Origin: Sphaeroforma arctica JP610 | Taxonomy: Eukaryota | DNA: 36,683 nt | Assembly (NCBI RefSeq): GCF_001186125.1 | Contig: NW_014040371.1 | Span: forward strand, 64,708-101,390 | Direction of reading: 5' to 3' | In this document: positions 58 to 34,300 of the stretch, piece by piece | How positions within the stretch are numbered: the stretch's first letter is position 1 | Layout: each line of letters begins with the position of its first letter | Notes under the pieces: model-generated | The model's input: only the letters and a program-made list of their open reading frames with translations | What the model was told of the DNA's origin: nothing | Databases searched by the model: none | Program-made: the position numbers and the translations under genes

Positions 58-3000
58 CTGCATATTGCAAAGCTCACAACACAGCCTTCATCGAGTGCGG
101 CTGTGATATTTGCGTACCCGCACATTTCAACACTACGTTGAGACTGTCACATCCGGATTACGACTCAAGTGCGTTTATCGGGTTGCAAACGGGCAGTCGG
201 AACATGGTTGTAGCCTCATTCAGGTGCGTGTGTCGTTCTTAGTATTATGATACTTACTATTAAAAACGTGATTCTCGACAATTTCGTCATTTTCATCCAA
301 GAATGAATCCGATTATATCTTGCATCATGTTCATCTAAGGATGGTAAGATGGCCCTCACGTTCTTTGCATCTCAACAATTCCACCCATCTTCTGACGGTT
401 TCGTTGTGTCATTGATGGCTGTAGCAGCAAAGCAGCGTATTTATTAAAATACACTGCCCTAATATTTCTAGAATTAATCTCTAGCAACTATTGGGCACGT
501 AATATCTCTCGCATACAGATATCTACTATCTCAGTCTCTCTCACACACACACACACACTCTCTCTCTCTCTCTCTCTCTCTCTCGCTCACTCTCATTGTA
601 AATAAGTTAGTAAAAAGTATGTTCCGCGCTGCGCTGATATCCATATCCGCCACATACCCACAGCTCCAGGTATAGGGGCACCTGAAGGTCTTGCTTGACC
701 CCAGACCCCAGTAAATCCTAAGACAAGCACCACAGGTCTTTGATGTATATGCCTCATTGCACATTGGTAGTATTATGATACTGTACTACATCTGTACCGT
801 GCATATGCCTGTACTTGTGCTGGTCGAGCGTAGTAATATAGCTAGAGTGGTATGCCTTTTGTAGGGTAGCGAATCAGTTGCTCTGTACCAACCTTAACCC
901 AGCACCTCCAACGGAGTCACGATACGCTTGCGTGCAAGGAGATAACAGCCACAGTGGATCCCAAACACACATGTGTACACAGCTGGGCTAAAGACTCCTA
1001 TCTCTAAATAAATAATTATGTTTCACTCTAATGCCTGCCCCATACAGGGGCACCCAGACCATGACCAACTGGATAAACAACCTCAAGGCTGTATATGTGA
1101 GCGCCCGAAAAAGTGGTTTTGGCGATGAATTCAAGGGTTGCAAACTGCACCTGGGATTCTGGGCCACCTTCAATTCGATTGGTCGCGAGTGTGTGGATGA
1201 GATAGCGCGCCTGCATGAAGTGCACCCGGACTACGAAGTGTTTGTCTGCGGCCATAGTCTAGGTGAGGCTATACATAACACGGACAGTACATACTTGGCT
1301 TGTATTTGTAGTCTGGTATCAAGTTGTTAGTAATGCAGCCTGTACCCCCCCTGGCTATCTGAACAACACTGCATCTGTCTGGGGCCTGGTGTAGGTGAGC
1401 CTGACCATACTACTGTACGTTCGGTGTACATGTGGCTGTAGCTAAACTACGTACCTCTTCACTGTGGTTGTAGTCTTGGCGCGTCTATTACTAGCCAAAA
1501 CAAACGTTCCCTATATCCGTATCCGTATTGCGCAGCGTCTGCGTGTGAGCGTAGTTCAGGTGAAACTGTATACGGAGCAATACATGTGTTGCCTGTATAG
1601 ATGTATTTTATGACTTGCCTCTGGGCATGGCGTATCTACGGCTACATAACATACACTGATGACATATATCTGCCTGGCAGAGTGTTCACCTGTACGCATA
1701 GACACCTTAAGATTTGTCCTACGGACTACGTGAGTGTCTTCGAGATGGTACACACGTGTTCGCTGGGCTTGTTCATAGCTGCTGTGTGTACATACTGCAT
1801 ACTATTAGACGGTCTCAGGCCACCTTTCATCCGATTGGTTTCAGAGGGTGTTGATGATACAGCTGGCGCGCACAGTTTGATGTTGAAGTGCACAGTCTGA
1901 GTGAGCCAGCAAACGACAACGGGCCTGTGTATTGGGAAGAGTGTCTTGTGACTTGCGCCATAGACATGATGTTTCTTTTAGTGAAATCGAGTTGAATTCA
2001 CTTGAAGTTATGAAACACATCGTAACAGAGTATATGAGAAATTGCACTCGCCTATACCCACTCGCGCATATTCATGGTCACTCATAGCGTAGCAAAAAAT
2101 ATGGGAAGGTCAATACTGCGTTACTACTTATCTATCCACCATAGTAGGCTCCTGGAATGTAGTGCATCTGTAGAATTCGTGCAGGGCCCAGTACATACCT
2201 CCATGTACTGGAGTCACACGGATATGATTTTTTTGCATCTGAAAACAAAGTATTTTGGGGATATACTTTATACTGATTAAGTGTTTTCGTGATTGGATGT
2301 GATATTCGCGTACCATTTCTAATGCAAACTGTTACGTTTCTCTGCCAATAGGCGATAGATTGGTGTAGTGTAGGCCTGTCTAGGTAACCGAGTTATTCAG
2401 TAGGGAGGTTTAAGGGATGGCACAAAATAGTACACATTGCATGGAATGACACAGTAACCAATCGCCTTTTAACCCATTTTTTTAAATTCTTTTACAATAA
2501 CAAAGTTTCGGACGTTTCGATCCTCCATCGCTTCCAATACAATCAAGCGCTGTTCAAGACTGTCTAGGGTTTCGGGCAAACCCTAAACCCTTCGAGCACC
2601 GTCTGTGTCTGCTGTTTTGCTCACATAGTCTTCTCCTTCAAATATAGGCGGTGCCATGGCTACCTACTGCACTCTGCAAGTGGCTCTGCGTGGTGTTCCT
2701 GTCCAGGGCTATACATTTGGTCAACCACGCACGGGTAATGCGAAGTGGGCGGTATGTTTATTAAGTGTATATGTACTGGGTTACACACACTATATGTGTA
2801 TATGTACTGAGTTGCATACGCTACACCGTATGGTATGGCAAGTATAGAGGTAGTATGCGTCAGTAATAAAAGTCGGAATGTCTATCAGTATATGTACTCA
2901 GTTACATACGCTACAACGTATGGTATGGTAAGTAGCTGGAGATGAAGGGAGGAAGTATGCGTCAGTATTAGAAGTCAACGAGTGGGACGATTTTGATTGG

Positions 3001-15515: not shown

Positions 15516-16771
15516 TTAGTCTCGAGCGTATACAAACTTTTTCTGGTCTAAGGGTTTTGTAAGCATATCGCTTAAAATGTGTGTTGTTGGTGTGTATAGA
15601 AGTCGGATTTCGCCTGTGACTATTTGTATGTGGCGTGTGCGCACTGAGGACTTTGAATTCTCACTTATCTTGATCGATGACTTGTTGTCTTGTTCGATGA
15701 TCGTAGGCTGTGCTTTCGGTAGACCAATTCCTTCAAGCAAGTGCCGTGTCCATACTGCGTCTCGTGTTGTATCTGAGCATGCGACATATTCTGCTTCGGC
15801 TGTCGAAAGTGTTGTTGTCTTCTGTAAGTTCGTCCCCCATAAAAGGGGTCCACCTGCTATCATACCAATCTTTCCTGTAGTAGATTTTGTGTTTTCTGAG
15901 TTTGAACAGTAGTCACTGTCAGCTGAAAAAAATAGGTGTGAAGGGTATATCCTTACTGTGCGTGATGCCCAAATCCCGTGTTCTTGACAAGTATCGTAAA
16001 ACTCGCTTGGCGGCTTGTAAGTGGCGTTCCATCGGTGCGACTAAATGACGTCCCAGTAGGTTCACAGAAAAGGATATGTCCGGTCTTGTGCCATCCGCCA
16101 AGTATCGTAAGCATCCTACAATATATTGAGAAGCTTTGATGTCAGTAGGTGTATCTTTGTCCGTAGCAATGTAACCGGTTTCAATGCAAGGGACCCGAGA
16201 TGTAATGCATTCTAGTAAGTCAAATTCTTCAAGTAGATCCATTGTGTATTGGCCCTGGTGTATGCTGACTTTGCCCGGTGTGTCTAGATTGATTTTGAGT
16301 TTGAGAAACCAGCTAGGCTCGCCCATATCTGTAGTGTTCCATTGTGTCTTCATTGCCTGAGTTCTTGCATCCGGATCTGCTATCGATTGACACATCACAA
16401 TTTTGTCGCCCACATGTACAAATAGTAAACATAGTAAATATAGTTGTCCGGCTGAAGTTCGTTTGACAAATAAAGTTTTGTCCTCATATAGTGGAATGTA
16501 ACCTTGCTTGATACAAAGCACCTTGATTTGTTGATACCAGAGCTCGCCGGATTGAGGTAAACCAAATAGAGCCTTTGATACTTTGCACACGACGGTCTTG
16601 TCTCCTTTTAGTGATCGTGTCAGTAATGCCTGTTGAGTAGGAGAAAAATGTTGATTTAGTAGATGATATCCTCTGGGTACACGCATATATATTGGCTCCT
16701 CGGGGTCGCTATTCAGGTAAGCATTCGGTGTGTCGTAATGGCGGACGGTCATGTTCGTGTGGGTTAGCAGT
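15516..16771 (-). pseudogene. Copia RT (C-terminal part) and RNase H
   Basis: ORFs 15919-16791 and 15516-15863 carry RVT_2 and Ty1 RNase H motifs; there is a frameshift near 15915. Confidence 0.9.
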
Positions 16772-17535
16772 TGTAATAGACGGGCCTCCACCTCTATGTA
16801 ATAAACGTACTCTTAAGCAGAATGTAAACTATAAACGTACTCTTAATAGTACGAGGAACTTAAGTTTCCTAAATGGTTTTTATCGGGTGTATTATTTAAT
16901 AACTTTTCCATTTTACATATCATATATTTGGACAAGGCCATTAAAAAGGCCCAAGTAAAATACCAAACATAAGATTTCGTCTAGTTCTATTAATAGAACT
17001 ATATTTACTTTACAAATTTATTTATATCTGAATACTTCGGTAGCCAGATGGCTCAACCGAAGATAGGTTTCTAGGGACTATTAACGTTACCTAGTTTATC
17101 CTCCGTTCAGTCAACCAGATGTGCCAGTCTGATGAAGGCTAAGTCGATAATTCTTGATAAGTGGCAAGTTATTGGTCAATGCAATAACTAAGGACATCAA
17201 GAGTTTTTTTTCTTTTTTTTCTTTTCTTTTTTTTTTAAGATATGATTCTATGAGTCTATCAGATTCGCCCCAATGAAACATACCATAGTTTCTAATAGAG
17301 CGATAACGAAACACTAAATAAAATCCCTTCGGCGGAAACAGTACTGAGAGGATTATATATAGGCAATGTCTCAGCCTCAAAATCCCTCAGAGTATTGCTG
17401 TTTTCACGAGGCATACCTAACTTCACTAAAAGACTCATTTCGTTTATTTACTTTGAATTTCACAATACTTGGACTTTACCTACGCGTTTAATTACTCTAA
17501 GGCGTTAATATCGCCTTGATAGACCGAATCTTACA
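16772..17535 (+). mobile_element. Solo LTR (764 bp) of the methyltransferase-carrying gypsy family
   Basis: TGTAA...TTACA termini; 4-bp TSD CAGT at 16768-16771 and 17536-17539; homologous to the LTR at 24055-24822. Its removal restores the copia RT reading frame (RICMAL|LTHTNM). Confidence 0.93.
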
Positions 17536-20500: not shown

Positions 20501-21389
20501 TCGGGCCGTTGTTGACAAAATACTGTTACTATCGAATGTTCCATATATTCGCTTGCTGACCTGCTATGTAGAGTACCCACCTCTGTGGTACGGATCAGGT
20601 CTGCGCCGTGTAGTGGCGCGGAATGGGTTAGTGCAGAGTATGAAATACCGAGAAGGACCAGGTTATCCGTCATAATCCGGTCGAGAAGCGAGGATGGGGG
20701 TAAGCCAATGCCGCACCAGACCACGGATGAATTCGATACTATAGCGACATATTAAGTATAAATACTTCTTCTCCATAAACGTTTGGTTCTTGATGGTGAT
20801 TCTTCGCATTTTGCGCTCTCGTTCTTGAACCCAGGGGAGGACTTCTTGTATAGGTTGAAGAGATATTCCAGATGTATTGATTTTGTCCAACCAAGCATTG
20901 TACATGTCAGTATTAATATCATTCCAATCAATAGTGACAGTAGTATTTGAATGCCACGTACCACACTCTTTAGGCATTCCTTCCGTGGCCATTAAGTAGC
21001 TCTTTAGATATGCCATTTGAGATCCAGTAGTTGTGACCATAAGATTTTATTTCTTACTCGGCTCTTCTACTTCGACCTCCGCATCGTAATCTAATTACAA
21101 ATCCAACTCACCAATACCATCTACTTTCTCGGCGTCTACAATATCTTGTTCGCATTGACGAGAATACTTGCTAGCCGCGGTGGGTGAATAGTAATGCTTC
21201 CGTATGTTACCAAGCCGGGTTCTTGTCTTTGTCACTTTATTTTTATAAAACTTAATCTCCCTTTCAGCCATACCGGAACAGGCTGTTTGCGAAATAATGA
21301 ATATTGTAATAGCCCGGCCTCCACATTAGACTCTATGTTATAAACGTACTCTTAAGCAGTACGTAAATTATAAATGTACTCTTAATAGC

Positions 21390-21701
21390 AAACCTAGATA
21401 TATACAATTCTTTAGTCTAGCAATGAATGCTTCACAGTTGAATTACCCAAGGGTTAAACAAGAGCTATTAGCCATAGTGGCAGCTCTAACACACTTCCGT
21501 GATTTCTTATACGGAACAGCATTTACGCTGATGTGTGATCAGAAATCACTTCAATATATGAAAGAGATGAAACCCGATTCACAAATACTGAGTCGCTGGC
21601 ATGATACAATATCAAAGTTTCATTTTGATGTAAAACATCTGCCAGGAATACATATCGATTTACCGGATATGCTATCACGCTTCGTAATTACTAGCCACTG
21701 A
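21390..21701 (+). pseudogene. Ty3/gypsy RNase H
   Basis: QFFS..MNASQLNY...ELLAIVAALTHFRDFLYG..F.LMCDQKSL...RW..ISKFHFDVKHLPG...DMLSR. Confidence 0.92.
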
Positions 21702-22191
21702 CTGGAAATGGAATCCTAGGTGGTTTGAACTGGCTCAAAAAATATTTGGGCCACATACCATAGATATGTTTGCTGCACATCATAATGCACAACTATCGAA
21801 CTACAGGACTTTAAATCATCCTGTGGGAGACACCTTTCAAATAGACCTCTCCAAACATAATGCGTGGGCTAATCCACCATGGCAGTTAATTGCCCAGCTA
21901 TTAAATTATGTTCATATACATAAAGCTACCATCACGTTGTGCTGCCCATTACGGAGTAAAGATCCATGGCTCAGTAAATTAATAGGCATGATACAATGCG
22001 AGCCAATATATTTAGATTGGGAAGTAGATACTTTCCTATATCAGGATAGCCGAGCCGTTCAGAAGACGCCCTGGAGACATACTATAATATGTCGTATAGG
22101 TCCCATTGGAACAACCAAATGGACCCCTTCTGAGACCTTCCTTAACAAGGTCAAAGAATTTCCACTCTCTACCCAATTGAACGTTAAGTAG
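21691..22191 (+). CDS. DNA N6-adenine methyltransferase domain (Dam/DIRS-MT-like) within gypsy pol
   Basis: TDWKWNPRWFELAQKIFGPHTIDMFAAHHNAQL (SAM-binding D.FA motif), DTFQIDLS..NAWANPPWQLI (catalytic NPPW), ..TLCCP...PW. Separated from RNase H by a 1-nt frameshift. Confidence 0.88.
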   Translation, partial: LATDWKWNPRWFELAQKIFGPHTIDMFAAHHNAQLSNYRTLNHPVGDTFQIDLSKHNAWANPPWQLIAQLLNYVHIHKATITLCCPLRSKDPWLSKLIGMIQCEPIYLDWEVDTFLYQDSRAVQKTPWRHTIICRIGPIGTTKWTPSETFLNKVKEFPLSTQLNVK

Positions 22192-22343
22192 TTCAAAGGC
22201 AACACAGCACTTGAAGTCTGTGGACAAGAAATACAATCTACTAATGACACTACTGTTAAGAAGCGTCAGTCTCTAGCTAGGACTCTGTTTAATAACATAA
22301 AGTCCAAGCCCGAGGTCTTTCATCCCTATTTCTAAAAGAGTTA

Positions 22344-23333
22344 ATGAAAGACAATCCTGAAGCGTATACACATATAATGCGACTATTTAATAAGTCAGGT
22401 GTATCTAACGCACATGAGCGCACTAATGACACTCATGCAAAAGCAAAACAGGCGTCTGGAAACACTACAGACTTAGAAATCACGCAAGTGGACTCTCAAT
22501 ACCCTACCTTTATTCTGGAGGAGCAGAATGATAAAAACATTCTTGCTTGGCTGACGCAAAATCATAAGCTGAAGCACCAGAACGTAGTAGACGCACTTAA
22601 AGAAGCTAAGCGAAATGAGATCGCGCATCCTAAGCTGGCAACTTTAGTTGACAGAGTATATCAGTCATGTACAGACTGTGATCTCAATCAGATCAAGCGC
22701 TATGAGTGCGCACCGCTTAAGAGCGTGACTGAAGATGTTCCATGGCGCAGGGTCATAATTGATCTGGTTGACCTGCCCACGTCCGAGCACACAGGCGACA
22801 GTTACGTATGCCACTTCTTTAATGTGGCGTCACGGTTTAACTTGCTATATCCATTAAAGGATAAGAATACGCAGACCGTGGCAGAATTATGTTTCCAAGT
22901 CCTTGTTGACCACGGGTGGCCGGGTATTATGTGCACTGATAACGGTAGTGATTTCTGCGATGACGTTATGGAATCGCTAGTACTTGTATCAGGCATATGC
23001 CATAAGATAGGTATGCCATATAAGCCGCAAACGCAAGGCGCGAATGAAACGCGCCATAGAAGATATAAGTTCTTCTTGCTTACTGCATTAACGGATGATG
23101 CAGATGATTGGCCGTACCACCTTAAGTGGGTACAAACACAGATGAACGAGTGTGCTGATCCGGTTACAGGAACTACACCCGCTCACTATTTTCGTGGCAG
23201 ATATAGTGCGTTACAAATCCCCTTTAACAAGGACGAATCTGATCACCATGAGTTACCATGGTTAGAGAAGGTACAACGTATTTATATCGTTGTATATCCT
23301 TGCTTGCGAGAAATACGCAATATAGCCTTATAA
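22344..23333 (+). CDS. Retroviral-type DDE integrase (rve) with HHCC zinc finger
   Basis: HKLKH...CTDC; PWRRVIIDLVDLP (D), TDNGSDF (D), PYKPQTQGANE (E). Confidence 0.92.
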   Translation: MKDNPEAYTHIMRLFNKSGVSNAHERTNDTHAKAKQASGNTTDLEITQVDSQYPTFILEEQNDKNILAWLTQNHKLKHQNVVDALKEAKRNEIAHPKLATLVDRVYQSCTDCDLNQIKRYECAPLKSVTEDVPWRRVIIDLVDLPTSEHTGDSYVCHFFNVASRFNLLYPLKDKNTQTVAELCFQVLVDHGWPGIMCTDNGSDFCDDVMESLVLVSGICHKIGMPYKPQTQGANETRHRRYKFFLLTALTDDADDWPYHLKWVQTQMNECADPVTGTTPAHYFRGRYSALQIPFNKDESDHHELPWLEKVQRIYIVVYPCLREIRNIAL

Positions 23334-24054: not shown

Positions 24055-24822
24055 TGTAATAAGCCGGGCCTCCACATTAGACTCTATGTATAAACGTACT
24101 CTTAAGCAGTTCGAGGAACTTAAGTTTCCTAAACGTACTCTTAATAGTATGAGGAACTTAAGTTTCCTAAATGGTTTTTAATGGTTTTATTAATTAATAC
24201 CTTTTCCATTTTACATATCATATATTTGGACGAGGCCATTAAAAGGCCCCAGTAAAATACCAAACATAAGAGTTGGTTTAGTTCTATTAATATAACTATA
24301 TTTACTTTCCATCTTTATTTAGATCTGAATACTTCGGTAGCGAGATGGCTCAACCGAATATAGGTTTCTAGGGACTATTAACGTTACCTAGTTGATCCTC
24401 CGATCCGCCAGCCAGATGTGCCAGTCTGATGAAGGCTAAGTCGTTAATTCTTGATAAGTGGCAAGTTATTGGTTAAGACAAGAACTAAGGACATCAAATG
24501 TATTTTTTTCTTTTCTTCTAAAGAGAGGATTTTATGAGTCTCTCAGATTCGCCCCAATGAAACATACCATAGTTTCTAATAGAGCGATAACGAAACACTA
24601 AATAAAATCCCTTCGGCGGAAACAGTACTGAGAGGATTATATATAGGCAATGTCTCAGCCTCACAATCCCGCAGAGTATTGCTGTTTTCACGAGGCATAC
24701 CTAACTTTACTAAACGTCTCATTTCGTTTATTTATATCGTTATTTACACGATATACAGAATTTACCTACGCGTTTATTTATTCTAAGGCATTAGTATCGC
24801 CTTTATTAGACCGAATCTTACA
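24055..24822 (+). repeat. 3' LTR of the gypsy element (followed by a second copy of its terminal ~130 bp, 24823-24954)
   Basis: TGTAAT...GAATCTTACA, preceded by the PPT; colinear with the solo LTR at 16772-17535. Confidence 0.9.
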
Positions 24823-26919
24823 ACGAGGCATACCTAACTTTACTAAAAGTCTTATTTCGTTTATTTACTTTGATATTTTCACGATACTTAGAATGTACCT
24901 ACGCGTTTAATTACTCTAAGGCGTTAATATAGCCTTGATAGACCGAATTTTACAGTATAGCGTACTTCAATGCAGTTGGGCAATTAATGCCCCATACCTG
25001 CCACCAGTCAAGTACAATACTACCTTCGCTCACTTCTTTCCAACACTCACTACCTACACCATAGTCCCCACGCCTGTAGAAGTAGTTTGATAGCTCCTGT
25101 ATAATCTTGACAAATAAAGCTTCCTGATACCCCTCCTTGGGAGCCACATTTAGTACACGCCTCAATATCGTATGCACCGCGTTGCGCACATAATAATGTC
25201 CTATCGTTGTCTCATCAATAAATGCCGGATCAAGAGCACCCGCTGCAATATAAAATGTATCATCTCGTACAAATTTCCAATTACCGCGCTTGCCACTGTT
25301 AAGCGTGGCCAATATTAATTCGGCGACATCATTGGCTTCCCCCGTTCCTCTAGTAAGTGCTGTCCATATACTCTCCGCTTTTCGCATAGCCGCAGATATC
25401 TTTGATGCTGTGGGTTTATTAGAATCTGCCAATCTGAGTAGTACAAGGATTGGGGACATGATGTTAAGTATGGTTTGTATCTTGTCCCACCAGGGTGTCG
25501 AACTAACCCACGATCTGACATCCTGGTATCGTCGAATCATTGCTTGTAATTTCTTATCTGAGCACTTATCTTTTATGTACGCCACATATTTCCGTGCGTA
25601 GCTAAATTATCCTGAAAGTTATGTATATCAGCTTGCAGAGGCGTACTTTGACGGTCTGCGGATGTGAATTCATCTATCTAAGCCATTAATATGGGACATG
25701 ACCAGAATAGTTTTGTTACAATGTCGCATTCATCCAGTACTTCTGCTATTATAGGCACAGCACAGACCTTCTCCATGACCAAATGCATAACATGCATTGA
25801 GTCATGGCTGCATGATATCCATGGTCTCGCTTTCTCGACAATAGGTCAGGCTGAGGTCATATTACCAGTAGTATCTGTCACTATAAGAAACACATACTGT
25901 CTTTCAAACGGCAATGTGTCTAAAATATCTACCAACATATCCGCATGGCATTTAGCAGTTTTTGTTATACCATCAAAAGTGTACTTTTTGGAATTAAACA
26001 TACCCACATGATGGGGTCGTACCTATCAGCCAACTTAGTAACCACATTCATGAGTTGTTCTTGGTGCACTGTGGCACCATCTATCGAAATTGTAGCACTC
26101 GTTACTGGCATTAGCTTAACAAACAACGTTGTGATTTCTTCTTTAGCTTTTTTCGTCTCTAGAGGTACATATATTTCGGAATACTTGTGTCTATTGATTA
26201 TTGGGTGATTTGGTGCAGCGCGTACTGCACTCAGTACTTCCTTGAAGTATTGGCTGTCTAGTACCCTGTTTGCAAGCCCGTGTCGTACAAAGAATTTTGT
26301 CAGTGCCGAATCTAGTTTATCCCCAGACTTGATGTCTCCAGGAAGATAGGACGCCTTGAACTTCTTATGCATTCCTTTCATTGGGAACATAGGTACATCT
26401 TCTAAAATACATTGTTTTTTGACAGGGGGTGTACAATTAGTATCATCCCCGTCACAACACTAAGCATTCAGATCAATAGTCACGGTTGATCGTTTGTTTG
26501 CATACGATTTCTTTGCTAACGTTGAGACATGAGGCGCGGTATTCATCACTATTGCTCTATATTCAATGCAGACTGCAGCGCTCTGTTTTGAGCAAGACAT
26601 AACGAGCCTTCGTCTGCATTCTGCACTCGATTCTTTTAACATCGTTGACTCGCATGCATTGCATTGCAACAGCGTCACGTTCATCCCTCCTTCCTTCACT
26701 ATTTTAAATTTAAAGTACACGAATGAAGGACATGATTTCCTGCCAAGATTACCGTACACTCTGGGAGCCGTAATGACTATCATGTGGCTTTTATTGTGCA
26801 CTGTTACTTGCTATTCTGATATATCTAGTTTGTAGACAGCTCTATGTAAAGTTTATTAGTTTTCATTGTCTAATTTTCAAATTTCAATTTTACGTTCACA
26901 AAGTCACGAACAATCGGCT

Positions 26920-29416: not shown

Positions 29417-31286
29417 CTATAATCCGAACATGCTAAAGGGTGAAGCGTACGCCATGGGCTTGACATTGGGGTGCGGCTGGTAGGAGGACAAAGGAAAACA
29501 ATGGGTCATGGGGTGTGTGAGGACAATTAGTTCAAGAGTATGGGGCTAAAAATAGGCAAATACTCGCGTGCAATTGCGATGAGGACAAACTTGTTATGCG
29601 AATCAATAGTAACCTGTGAACACATGCGTCATTGTGCTGGCCTGTAGCAATGAGAAAATCATTTCGAGAGTATATGATCCTGCTGTAACCTCTTGGAGCG
29701 CTTGATGTTGACTACTGTTTCAGAATTCTCAGTATATGCGCGTGTCAATATATGCTCATGCACAATAAATCTTGCTTACTATACCAAAACCAAGCGAGCT
29801 TACACACAATGTTTCGGTTCAATGACTCTTGTCGCGACTACCTACAACGCCCCGATAAAAGGAAAGACATTCTTCTACCCAACTATACCATGGTGCCCGG
29901 CCAATCACATTTAAATATGTACCATTCATCTTGTGTTTGATACGCAACACACGTATTATTATAATTGCGCCTACGCCAGTCTGTATAGTGATTCTGAGTG
30001 TAGCACATACCACAGACCCGAACGTTGTGAACTTGGGCGTGAAGTCATCGCCCCTGACCGTGATGAAAGCTCCTTTGTTGCCCATCTGATCACTGTAGGT
30101 ATCAACCAATGGTAGAGTTAATTCTAATTCAAAGTCAGTATATGAGATAGCTCACATGGCAAAGTCCGTATATGAGATAGCTTACATGTCACTGATACGC
30201 TAATCGACATGGAGAGGCCGTTACCGCAAAAGAAACTTACGAGGATGGATATGCACTAGATAACACATGCGTTCTGAGACCCGCTACCTATATGGAACAT
30301 AGGCAGCGGTTGCGTAGTTGCCTAGTAACCGTTGCCAGGCAACGTGTGAGGCAGAGCATGCGTCGTGTACGATACGACAAGTCTAAAACACGAGAGCTTC
30401 TCATTGAGATTGGGCACGTGCAACCGTAATAGATAAAGAGTATACTGGCAACTTGGGGGGAGACATCCCTGATCTGACTGTTGATGACGTACTGCGCGAT
30501 GCGTGCTGCTGGGCAGGATCCACGCAGCGCATGGGCCACTGAGTCACAGTCTATCAAATACTGAGTAATGTATCAGAATACATGCGCGCGTGAGTGTGAG
30601 TGTGTGTGTGTGCGTGCATGTGCGTGAATGTGTTCGTATGTGTTTGTATATATGCCCATAGCGAGAATAGGTGTCAAGACATACCAGTAGTTGGGTGCTG
30701 AGAAGACGGTGATGCACTTGCCGTCATGGTGGATTTCATATCCGTTGTCCTTCACCTCGTGACTACGTACCACATAATCTGTGACCCAAAGACAGAGTGA
30801 GTTCAATAAAATATTGTTATAACAAGTGTTGAGATAATTGCATTGGGAGAGCTCTGTATATATATATACGTAAGCGTTAATTAACAAGTGCATACATATT
30901 CCAAGGCCACACAGAACTAGACAGTGTATGGTTGAATAACATATAACGTATACATCGCAGTTCACCAGTGAGTTTCCCATACCTAGACCGTTTAGTTTGC
31001 AGAATGCATCTGTGACATCAGGTCCGAAGTGCAGACCCACACCACGCTTGGACGGCGCACGACCAGGCAAGATCTGAGGGTCAGCCCACAGCATCTCACA
31101 CATGAGTCCTGAAAAAAGAAATAGGTACATGCCACGCAAATGTGTGAATACTTTGAATATATATATACATATATATAAAACAATGATGGGAGAATGAGGC
31201 AATCGACGTATAGATAGCCTAGACTACTACGCACAGAGATACTAATAAAATATCCATCATATATATATATTTATACATACATACGT

Positions 31287-31328
<42 letters not shown>

Positions 31329-34300
31329 CAAAAGCTTGGGATAACAAACACAATACTTGATTGGTCAGGCACCTCAATCCCAGGGGGTAAATACTTGCGC
31401 AAAATCTATACTGGCGATATGAAGTACACAAAGCTAGAAGGAACCTGAATCCCCGCTTATCGGGCTATTGCATTGCGCACACACATGTCAGCGAACACAT
31501 GATCGCTGAGTTGGCATAAAAGGACACATGCCGACTACAGAGAGGGTTGTGCATGACATAGACAGTTGTGTCAGTCTGACGGCTTTGCGGAAGAGCTATT
31601 GCTCACTAAGGTGTGGGTACATACGGATACAGCAACATGCACCACACCAGACAAGCAAGCACAGACCACTTGCTGTGAACCACCAGACAAGAACGCACAG
31701 ACCACTTGCTGTGAACCACCAGACAAGCACGCACAGACCACTTGCTGTGAACCACCAGCCAAGCACGCACAGACCACTTGCTGTGAACCACCAGACAAGC
31801 ACGAACAGACCACTTGCTGTGAAGCATCAGACAAACACGCACAGACCACTTGCTGTGAACCACCAGACAAACACGCACAGACCACTTGCTGTGAGCCACC
31901 AGACAAGCACGCACAGGCCACTTGCTGTGAAGGCTCGGTCACTACGCTAGCCCCACCTGCAGCACAATGGCATGTCACGTGATAGACGCTCAGGCAATGC
32001 GTGTACGTATACGCGTTGGGTACATGTGCAAGTATGTTCTAACTGGTACATACAGAGCCCCTACGTACCTGAATCTGGGGGCTCGCGGAAGCGATCAACC
32101 TTCCTCAAATCATTCAAGGTGACCCCGTCCTCACTGAACAGGCCTCCGTGCACGCACAGCACCTTGCCGGCGATGCAATGGGCCAGAGGCACCGTCCTGA
32201 ACACTTCGTGGAACAGCTCTACCATGATATCCGATCCCTTGGCCTTGACCTCGCCATCGAATCCGTACATCTTGTTCATGTTGGTGCTCTCGTGGTTGCC
32301 TCGGGCCATGTAGAAGTGCTCGGGGTATAGCAGCTGTGCCAAGGAATGGGGTGTGGGGAGGTGTGTGTGTGTGGGGTGTATATAAGAGGGTGTTATCAGG
32401 AGAATCCTTTGTGCTCGGGGTGTAGCAGCTGTGCCGAGGAATAGGGTGTGGGGAGGAGTGTCTGGGGGGTGGTGTATATAAGAGGTGCTATCACGAGAAT
32501 CCTTTGTGCTCGGGGTATAGCAGCTATTGAGTGTGAGTTGAAAGTGGTGTGTGAGCATATGCAGACGAGCGTGCTATTATAAACTGTGGGTCTAGGCTAA
32601 AGGAGTGATACAAAAAGACGGGTAAAGGGCAATAGCTTTGATCGCATGCGTCAGAGGGAGCGTCAGACAACCCTGGTGCCCTGAGTATATGAACTAAACA
32701 GGCATAGGAAGCGAGAAGAAGTGCGTGTGTACACAGGGGAAAATCTACCGTGCAACGTGACACGGGCGACTATATCGGATAGGAAGTGGACTATCCGGTG
32801 TACGACCACTCACTTGGCAGCCCTCGAAACTAGAAGGTTCGCAAACACGTTAAACACATGGGAGTTCGCGCAACACTTTTGTGCAGAGACAGCAACCCTG
32901 CGAGCCTGGACAGCGCAGAATCGGTCACGACTTTCGATCCCGTTCTCAACAGCAAGGTGCGGCATGGGCACACCTACACTACACACCTTGTAACTGAACA
33001 GCACCAGGATCACTTCTACACACCTTGTAACTGAACAGCACCAGGATCACTTCTACACACCTTGTAACTGAACAGCACCAGGATCACTTCTACACACCTT
33101 GTATCTGAACAGCACCAGGATCACTTCTACACACCTTGTATCTGAACAGCACCAGGATCACTTCTACACACCTTGTAACTGAACAGCACCAGATCATTCN
33201 CAGCTAGTACNACNNCACGAGTACNCTACTACTACNCTACGTAGTACAGAACCTAGTACGTACGTAACGTACGTACGTACCGTAACGTACCGNNNNNNNN
33301 NNNNNNNNNNNNCCAACCTACGTTAACGTGGTAACCAAGGACGACCAGGAGTACCTACTTCTACACACCTACTAGTCTGAACAGCACCAGGATCACTTCT
33401 ACACACCTTGTAACTGAACAGCACCAGGATCACTTCTACACACCTTGTAACTGAACAGCACCAGGATCACTTCTCCACACCTTGTAACTGAACAGCACCA
33501 GGATCACTTCTACACACCTTGTAACTGAACAGCACCAGGATCACTTCCAGCGAGAACGAGCCTCTGTCTACAAAGTCGCCGTTAAACAGGTAGGGATTGG
33601 TCTCGGATGGGGTGCCATTGAGCTCAAAGATATTTAATAAATCGTAGTACTGTCCGTGTATATCTCCGCAGATGGTGAACTTGCCGTCTTTGGGCACCTT
33701 GACGTCCACGAGTGTACTTTGCGCCTTGAAATAGGTCATGACCTGCAACATTCCAAAATAAAAATTAGGAACGTCCCAAAACAGAAAATTGGGAGTCGTA
33801 AATAATAAAGGTCTGGCGCAATTGGTGGGATTTAGTGTATACAAGTGACTTGTACCGGCTTGAAAAACACGGATAATGACATAAAGAAGCGAAGTCCGAT
33901 GGATGGACAAAAAGCACAGAACACGCGCCTGTACATACTTACAGTAACATACATACACACACGAATCAGTCACGTCTTATGACACGGATAAAGAACACAG
34001 AACACGCACCTGTACGTACTCACAGTAACACACATACACGCGCAAATCAGTCACGTCCTGTGATACGGACAGGCAATAGCCACACACCTGCAGAAGGATC
34101 TGATACACAAACTTGCGGTGCAGTCGCCTCTCGGACTTAAAGTGCGTCTTGAGCTCCTCTACAAACTCCTTTGTGATTTTGCCATCGACCAGGCGAGGCC
34201 CTTCGTACGAGTCTTCTACGTGCATGCTATCCACATCCAACCCCTCCGCCACACTCTTGGCTCCCTCCCTGTACAGTTTATAAGCGTAAGTGTGTCAGGC

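Follow-up and report, generated by a model that had tools for sequence, protein, structure and literature searches.

The insert described here comprises the last 510 bp, at the 3′ end, of an IS607-type Fanzor2 element. Our reading, to which we give about an even chance, is that the direct repeat around it is the scar of an aborted homing repair and not a target site duplication (TSD) formed on integration. The insert lies within the window, i.e. the whole stretch of 36,683 nt of DNA that was analysed. On the element strand the locus reads in the order core, 13 bp, 5-6 filler bases, the element's 3′ 510 bp, core, and the same 13 bp (Table 1). The fragment ends at the right end of its family, the repeat follows directly after this end, and the upstream copy of the repeat follows an AG. 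This anatomy is already known from Fanzor1 elements; its occurrence with an IS607-type Fanzor2 is new, as is the proposed cause. No published statement of the aborted homing reading was found in the openly accessible literature searched.

Table 1. Features of the insert and the surrounding lipase gene, in positions of the window.
Feature	Position	Strand	Basis
Lipase exons	57-220, 1045-1263, next ~2649	+	PF01764 match; frame open once spliced
Host intron, class 3 lipase gene	221..1044	+	joint 220-1045 in X17, X20; GT..AG; up to 3-4 nt of ambiguity at the junction
3′ copy of 13-bp duplication; guide position directly past right end	240..252	-	repeat comparison and contigs
Probable terminal core dinucleotide AG of element	253..254	-	two other copies read TAGTA-AAG / TAGTA-GAG (loose ends) before divergence
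Predicted omegaRNA scaffold and right-end region	255..526	-	fold; layout of relatives; 254/255-298/300 and 409-447 common to other genome loci
T-run, then TAGTA	266-255	-	layout as in relatives
Two subterminal 9-nt repeats	380-372, 283-275	-	layout as in relatives
Pseudoknot-loop motif CTACA	424-420	-	layout as in relatives
Hairpin in predicted scaffold	455-434	-	fold/layout
(CT)n/(CA)n microsatellite inside insert, at reading-frame end	527..594	.	sequence
Fanzor2 C-terminal 56 codons: shifted RuvC-II Glu (755-753), C4 zinc finger, RuvC-III Asp (641-639)	594..761	-	profile match, relatives, ApmFz2 alignment
Junction filler, 5-6 bases	762..767	-	relatives match nothing upstream of Cys at 761
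5′ copy of 13-bp flank duplication; guide-matching target, positions about 1-13	768..780	-	identical to 240-252
Probable empty-site core AG (782-781), putative TAM ending CAG, preceded by TAGTA (resembles element right end)	781..788	-	sequence; related IS607 left flanks share terminal dinucleotide with right end

The coding fragment and its host intron

The peptide encoded on the minus strand of the insert matched PF07282 (E 2.4e-10) and had the mimivirus ApmFz2 (9B0L, E 4e-5) as its closest sequence match in the PDB; NCBIfam TnpB models matched it below cut-off. The TnpB/Fanzor identity proposed in an initial annotation of the sequence is borne out by these profile and PDB matches. RuvC-III and the zinc ribbon, which had been recognised there, are indeed kept, with the correction that the start before the zinc ribbon also keeps the shifted catalytic Glu. 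Specifically, this Glu and the second Asp align with the catalytic residues E467 and D501 of ApmFz2, and the arrangement of shifted Glu, zinc finger and Asp also aligns with 11 longer relatives, which share 59-70% identity over the matched part and contain a RuvC-I DPG motif. DPG-like motifs occur in 56 out of 62 relatives of over 300 aa; the insert is missing the part with this motif and the N-terminal extension. Homology to the relatives begins at about position 761, 5-6 bases inside the insert, and leaves 56 codons, in agreement with the 5′ truncation that had been described.

A conserved RD motif carries Met in place of the Arg that 61 of the 62 relatives have kept, and a microsatellite lies at the end of the reading frame; the fragment is thus a little decayed, and the product of the locus is dead as a nuclease gene. 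Since both close relatives that were checked (L032 and L045) encode a serine recombinase TnpA beside the nuclease, the parent appears, from this gene neighbourhood, to be an IS607-type Fanzor2 element. TnpA is absent from the fragment. Pattern scans of viruses gave chance matches, and a Fanzor was encoded only in L216, an already known relative; two further candidates, P0013 and P0014, were rejected as spurious repeat matches. A second short TnpB C-terminal piece was seen in another locus (L126:2374-2520), 1.2 kb downstream of a TnpB gene.

The intron location was also found as initially annotated. Contigs of runs X17 and X20, which we guess to be RNA, splice position 220 to 1045 with GT..AG borders, and the insert is therefore intronic in an expressed class 3 lipase gene. 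This gene is still spliced, and the dead fragment gives no sign of an effect on it. Because the insert sits in a spliced intron and contigs span both insert junctions in four full-depth DNA runs (X1, X7, X12 and X14), we are dealing with a Fanzor of a eukaryotic host and not with contaminating prokaryotic TnpB. No contigs lay on the insert in the runs guessed as RNA (X17, X20 and X22), which is uninformative as to its expression.

Several other features were observed in the window. A remnant of a Copia-type reverse transcriptase (PF07727) is encoded at 15516-16812 on the minus strand. It is followed by a long direct repeat of about 700 bp, the copies being 7.3 kb apart, with a shorter third copy (16801-17535, 21316-21390, 24067-24948). 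Amid these repeats lie genes for an RNase H (21330-21701), a Dam-like methyltransferase (21688-22191) and an integrase (22296-23333), and we take the repeat-flanked block to be an unusual mix of gypsy-like and DIRS-like parts. ORF pieces at 24950-26810 (minus strand) resemble a hAT-type transposase by eye, and the two pieces tested had no Pfam match at 1e-3. An intronless ORF of 630 aa for a Na+/Pi cotransporter (PF02690; 11751-13643, minus strand) is found in otherwise intron-rich surroundings. At 30573-33976 (minus strand) the motifs GDIHGQ, GDFVDRG and RGNHE mark what are presumably serine/threonine phosphatase exons, the introns of which contain tandem arrays of 36-37-bp and 95-bp units.

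The right end of the element and the flank repeat

An exact 15-mer occurs at 240-254 and again at 768-782, enclosing 513 bp as the initial annotation had stated, and is otherwise absent from the window. With one gap the repeat can be extended to 20/21 bases (240-259 versus 768-788). Because 33 of 300 simulated windows contained some exact 15-mer pair 100-3000 bp apart, the repeat by itself is modest evidence; the rough probability that such a pair falls by chance at both ends of the fragment is at most 7e-5.

Other copies in the genome help to place the end of the element. In runs X1, X7, X12 and X14 two other contigs match the window from 254/255 to 298/300 with 85-89% identity and then diverge; one of them also matches 409-447, and one was seen again in run X16. 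Their ends read TAGTA-AAG and TAGTA-GAG on the element strand. The window copy reads TAGTA-AG and appears one base shorter than both in these 45-nt matches. Since these two loci share the right end and diverge at the repeat, the 3′ copy of the repeat is in the position of a guide. We placed the end of the window copy at AG because the pseudoknot strand of relatives lies two bases before their boundary. For 29 relatives the end had been defined by the point at which the flanks diverge; in 17 of them the 5-mer that stops two bases short of this boundary had its complement upstream, compared to 2-8 of 29 in the same test at offsets of at least 5 nt. This end-proximal complement would fit the terminal pseudoknot of the ApmFz2 omegaRNA (PMC11832414). 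The pseudoknot strand is intact in one of the other genome copies and altered in the window copy. A further alignment of right ends (A2) was anchored on the pseudoknot match and is descriptive only.

In related IS607 families, left flank and right end share their last dinucleotide (GAG versus CAG; GAC versus CAC), and the same kind of sharing has been reported as GGG versus CGG (10.1101/2023.08.09.552727, 10.1101/2023.11.20.567912). AG is likewise present on both sides of our locus, in the target and at the right end. The family thus probably ends in a core AG. In that case the first two of the 15 bases would belong to the element in the 3′ copy, where they form its end, and to the target in the 5′ copy, where they are the core. 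Because this AG is probably the core dinucleotide, we count a flank duplication of 13 bp rather than 15 bp. The 15-bp duplication of flanking DNA described initially stands to the extent that flank is indeed duplicated, while two of its 15 bases probably belong to the element: the AG is the apparent terminus in two other copies, and the remaining 13 bp are flank. Resemblance between the 5′ flank and the right end continues past the core (TAGTA; chance about 0.001 at a fixed place), and the left flanks of 18 related IS607 copies showed no such match to their right ends.

The region next to the right end is a predicted omegaRNA scaffold. The predicted fold of 240-530 had a z of -2.98 with none of 200 shuffles equally good, and the layout of the clade is present, with hairpin, loop motif, second hairpin, two subterminal 9-nt repeats, T-run and end. 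An Rfam scan gave a single match at chance level. Right ends of the Fanzor2/IS607 clade (L031-L113 and L110) read T-run, AA, variable, AG, CG, and their upstream complement of 5-7 nt co-varies as a predicted pseudoknot, which is useful for the prediction of omegaRNA boundaries. As a separate observation, the contigs of 2.3-2.7 kb in X1, X7, X12 and X14 that match 254-298 and 409-447 are shorter by 63 nt in the part of the scaffold between 298 and 409. This second copy is without a match of at least 80% to the ORF tail, its letters past 447 could, with changed pairs, fold into the same hairpin, and it is possibly a ghost element or a member of another subfamily.

Comparable loci and known systems

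In its remains the insert resembles the eukaryotic IS607 elements with Fanzor2 (IS607EU; ApmFz2, 9B0L; PMC3627910, PMC11832414, 10.1101/2023.08.09.552727) with respect to Glu/Asp, the C4 zinc finger and the right-end layout with its predicted pseudoknot and probable core dinucleotide. It differs from them, as the relatives have the DPG motif and TnpA, whereas only the last 56 codons are left here, with neither left end nor TnpA. It also has a 13-bp flank duplication, whereas IS607 elements make none; the earlier statement that IS607 elements normally make no TSD is supported. Ghost and non-autonomous Fanzor elements similarly keep the omegaRNA region without a full ORF (PMC10432273), but the ghost Spu-1 elements have both ends, in contrast to our insert, of which the left end is gone while a stub of coding sequence remains.

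One survey for repeats among IS607 relatives examined 80 of 189 loci with both motifs. In a second one, an upstream repeat of the right flank was found at one out of 101 distinct right ends, that of the cyanobacterial-type IS607 copy L062, and at none of 55 further, partly overlapping ends (20 bacterial genomes, up to 1.5 kb upstream). L062 reads GAC, 89 bp of flank, a 5′-truncated element ending in CAC, and the same 89 bp; its element is without ~50 bp of the left end and part of tnpA. Other repeats of at least 13 bp in these 80 loci (L009, L032/33, L046, L065, L069, L081/82) adjoin no right end among the matches listed. In the metagenome assembly of L062 (779-2701), the 89-bp right-flank duplication starts directly after the core and is followed by a 39-bp tandem duplication.

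The closest described parallel are the Chlamydomonas elements CRe-1/2/3, Fanzor1 elements that are 5′-truncated and 3′-intact with repeats of 7-19 bp that begin directly behind the target motif TTTT and, in some cases, with additional 5′ bases (Bao and Jurka, 2013, PMC3627910). In a Fanzor-less sister family such repeats occur in only 1 in 200 copies (PMC3627910). Unlike our single IS607/Fanzor2 copy without an HUH enzyme, the CRe families are Fanzor1 on Helitron2 with hundreds of copies. Their anatomy was explained as one-ended rolling-circle transposition (PMC3627910), and the cause has since been called unknown, with Fanzor and HUH tentatively invoked (Craig, PMC10288648). Because the TSD-flanked CRe-1 loci 1, 4 and 5 retain segments that we read as introns (PMC3627910), a DNA template is favoured for these copies. 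The homing of TnpB in IS605/IS607, which restores the element, resembles our proposal in that excision is followed by guided cutting of the vacated site, which is then repaired from a filled copy (10.1101/2023.11.20.567912, PMC13565253); it takes place in bacteria and restores the element completely, whereas we infer an incomplete product in a eukaryotic nuclear intron. A 2026 review treats restorative homing and does not describe such scars in the parts consulted (PMC13565253).

Possible origins of the flank repeat

In the preferred reading, a full element would have resided at this AG and would have been excised by its serine recombinase from one chromatid, which would have restored core and flank. 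Fanzor2 with an omegaRNA whose guide equals this flank would have cut the empty site ~13 bp beyond the core, and the distal end would have invaded the filled sister or homologue and copied back through the 13 bp and the right end into the ORF. Synthesis may have halted after ~510 bp, with the new end being joined through 5-6 filler bases to the proximal end that still carried its 13 bp.

In favour of such a course, the right end coincides with the repeat, as two other loci match from 254/255 inward while their flanks differ, and the nearest relatives are IS607 elements with TnpA and Fanzor2. IS607 excision in bacteria is scarless, and cutting of the empty site by TnpB leads to restoration by recombination from the filled copy (10.1101/2023.11.20.567912). 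Fanzor2 enzymes cut 9-21 bases past the TAM, with MmeFz2 leaving 3′ overhangs (PMC10432273, PMC10530073). MmeFz2 cuts the target strand after 9-14 and the non-target strand after 17-18 bases (PMC10432273), and a 13-bp remnant would be compatible with such cutting. Contigs over both junctions and the lack of a second coding copy are as expected if the donor was this locus. The like arrangement at L062 and in the Chlamydomonas CRe-1/2/3 elements also speaks for this course.

Other observations stand against homing. We have a single locus, with no empty or full-length allele seen; no joint of an empty site was present in the DNA runs X1, X7, X12, X14 and X16, which were chosen as carrying the locus or by label and say nothing of other strains. 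Other Fanzor2 cut further out, NlovFz2 at 19 and ApmFz2 at 15-21 (PMC10432273, PMC10530073), and the CAG before the 5′ copy is only a putative TAM. The TAGTA match beyond the core is not predicted by homing and also fits a microhomology-primed insertion. The anatomy is moreover rare among relatives, and L062, coming from a metagenome assembly, could be an artefact.

Retrocopies mobilised by LINEs through target-primed reverse transcription (TPRT) show 5′ truncation and a duplication of about 15 bp. It is unlikely, in our estimate, that the transcript or cDNA of a Fanzor at another locus was likewise inserted by TPRT, or by patching of a break, at a staggered 21-bp cut with priming by microhomology between the target (TAGTACAG) and the element end. 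The 5′ truncation and the extension of the duplication to 20/21 bases would fit, comparison with one of the other copies gives 7 identical bases out of 8 between target and right end, and remnants of retroelement reverse transcriptases are present in the window. However, the remnants identified are of the LTR type and not LINEs, and priming would have been required exactly at the last 8 bases of the element. The insert ends at a DNA right end and has neither a poly(A), as had been noted before, nor a donor flank, although omegaRNAs extend ~17-20 nt beyond the element end (10.1101/2023.08.09.552727). No copy at least 80% identical over 602-767 was found among the contigs of the four full-depth DNA runs, where a filter may hide records. 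The stretch of the element present at our locus has no known intron; the analogous CRe-1 copies retain intron-like segments, and the 89-bp repeat of L062 exceeds the length that TPRT would leave. The first explanation offered in the initial annotation, retroposition in trans from an expressed family elsewhere, is therefore not supported in the absence of poly(A), donor flank and parental coding copy, and is less likely than a local aborted repair. Its second suggestion, capture at a staggered break, comes near to the preferred reading, except that the template was probably the same locus and not one elsewhere.

The same allelic template could have been used after a break that was not made by Fanzor but arose by chance or when a fork collapsed. 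Alternatively, element end and flank might have been duplicated in tandem (528 bp) and the upstream element then excised, perhaps with a few right-end bases left in place. Taken together, we hold these histories to be improbable. They would yield the identical sequence, left-over right-end bases would account for the TAGTA before the 5′ copy, and no cut position determines the length of the long repeats (89 bp in L062; 44-443 bp in CRe). Yet the break must then land within the 10-20 bp where Fanzors cut, the Chlamydomonas repeats are common only in families carrying Fanzor, and IS607 excision has been described as scarless.

We see a slim chance that Fanzor2 cut the empty site and that the guide-paired, cut target strand primed reverse transcription of the element RNA through guide and scaffold into the ORF. 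Exactly the observed anatomy would be predicted, without poly(A), and the geometry matches a target-strand cut at 9-14. Against this, the copied stretch of ~445 nt without the microsatellite exceeds the omegaRNA scaffolds of ~150-205 nt (10.1101/2023.08.09.552727, PMC11832414), the CRe-1 analogues retain intron-like segments, and no reverse transcriptase is linked to the element. If true, Fanzor2 would be a natural prime editor, and truncated Fanzor copies whose duplications start at the core would have arisen through retrohoming by a DNA transposon.

It is very improbable that another transposase captured this Fanzor2 fragment and left an ordinary TSD: Fanzor2 capture by transposons with terminal inverted repeats (TIRs) is known, but with TSDs of 4-5 bp (10.1101/2023.08.09.552727), and our insert begins mid-ORF at its 5′ end, has no TIR, and showed no inverted repeat linking its two ends in a comparison within the window.

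The cutting of vacated sites by Fanzor and homing in eukaryotic nuclei have so far been inferred from bacteria, and we found no in vivo demonstration of Fanzor homing in eukaryotic nuclei in the literature searched. With the present locus, the pattern known from Fanzor1 is also seen in an IS607-type Fanzor2, for which no HUH or DDE enzyme can be held responsible. If aborted homing leaves the arrangement of core, short flank, truncated element and same flank as its scar, genomes would record Fanzor activity in readable form: the TAM would be given by the 5′ copy and the cut site bracketed by the length of the repeat, with no experiment needed. Aborted homing would then also explain the variable TSDs of the Chlamydomonas CRe elements reported in 2013.
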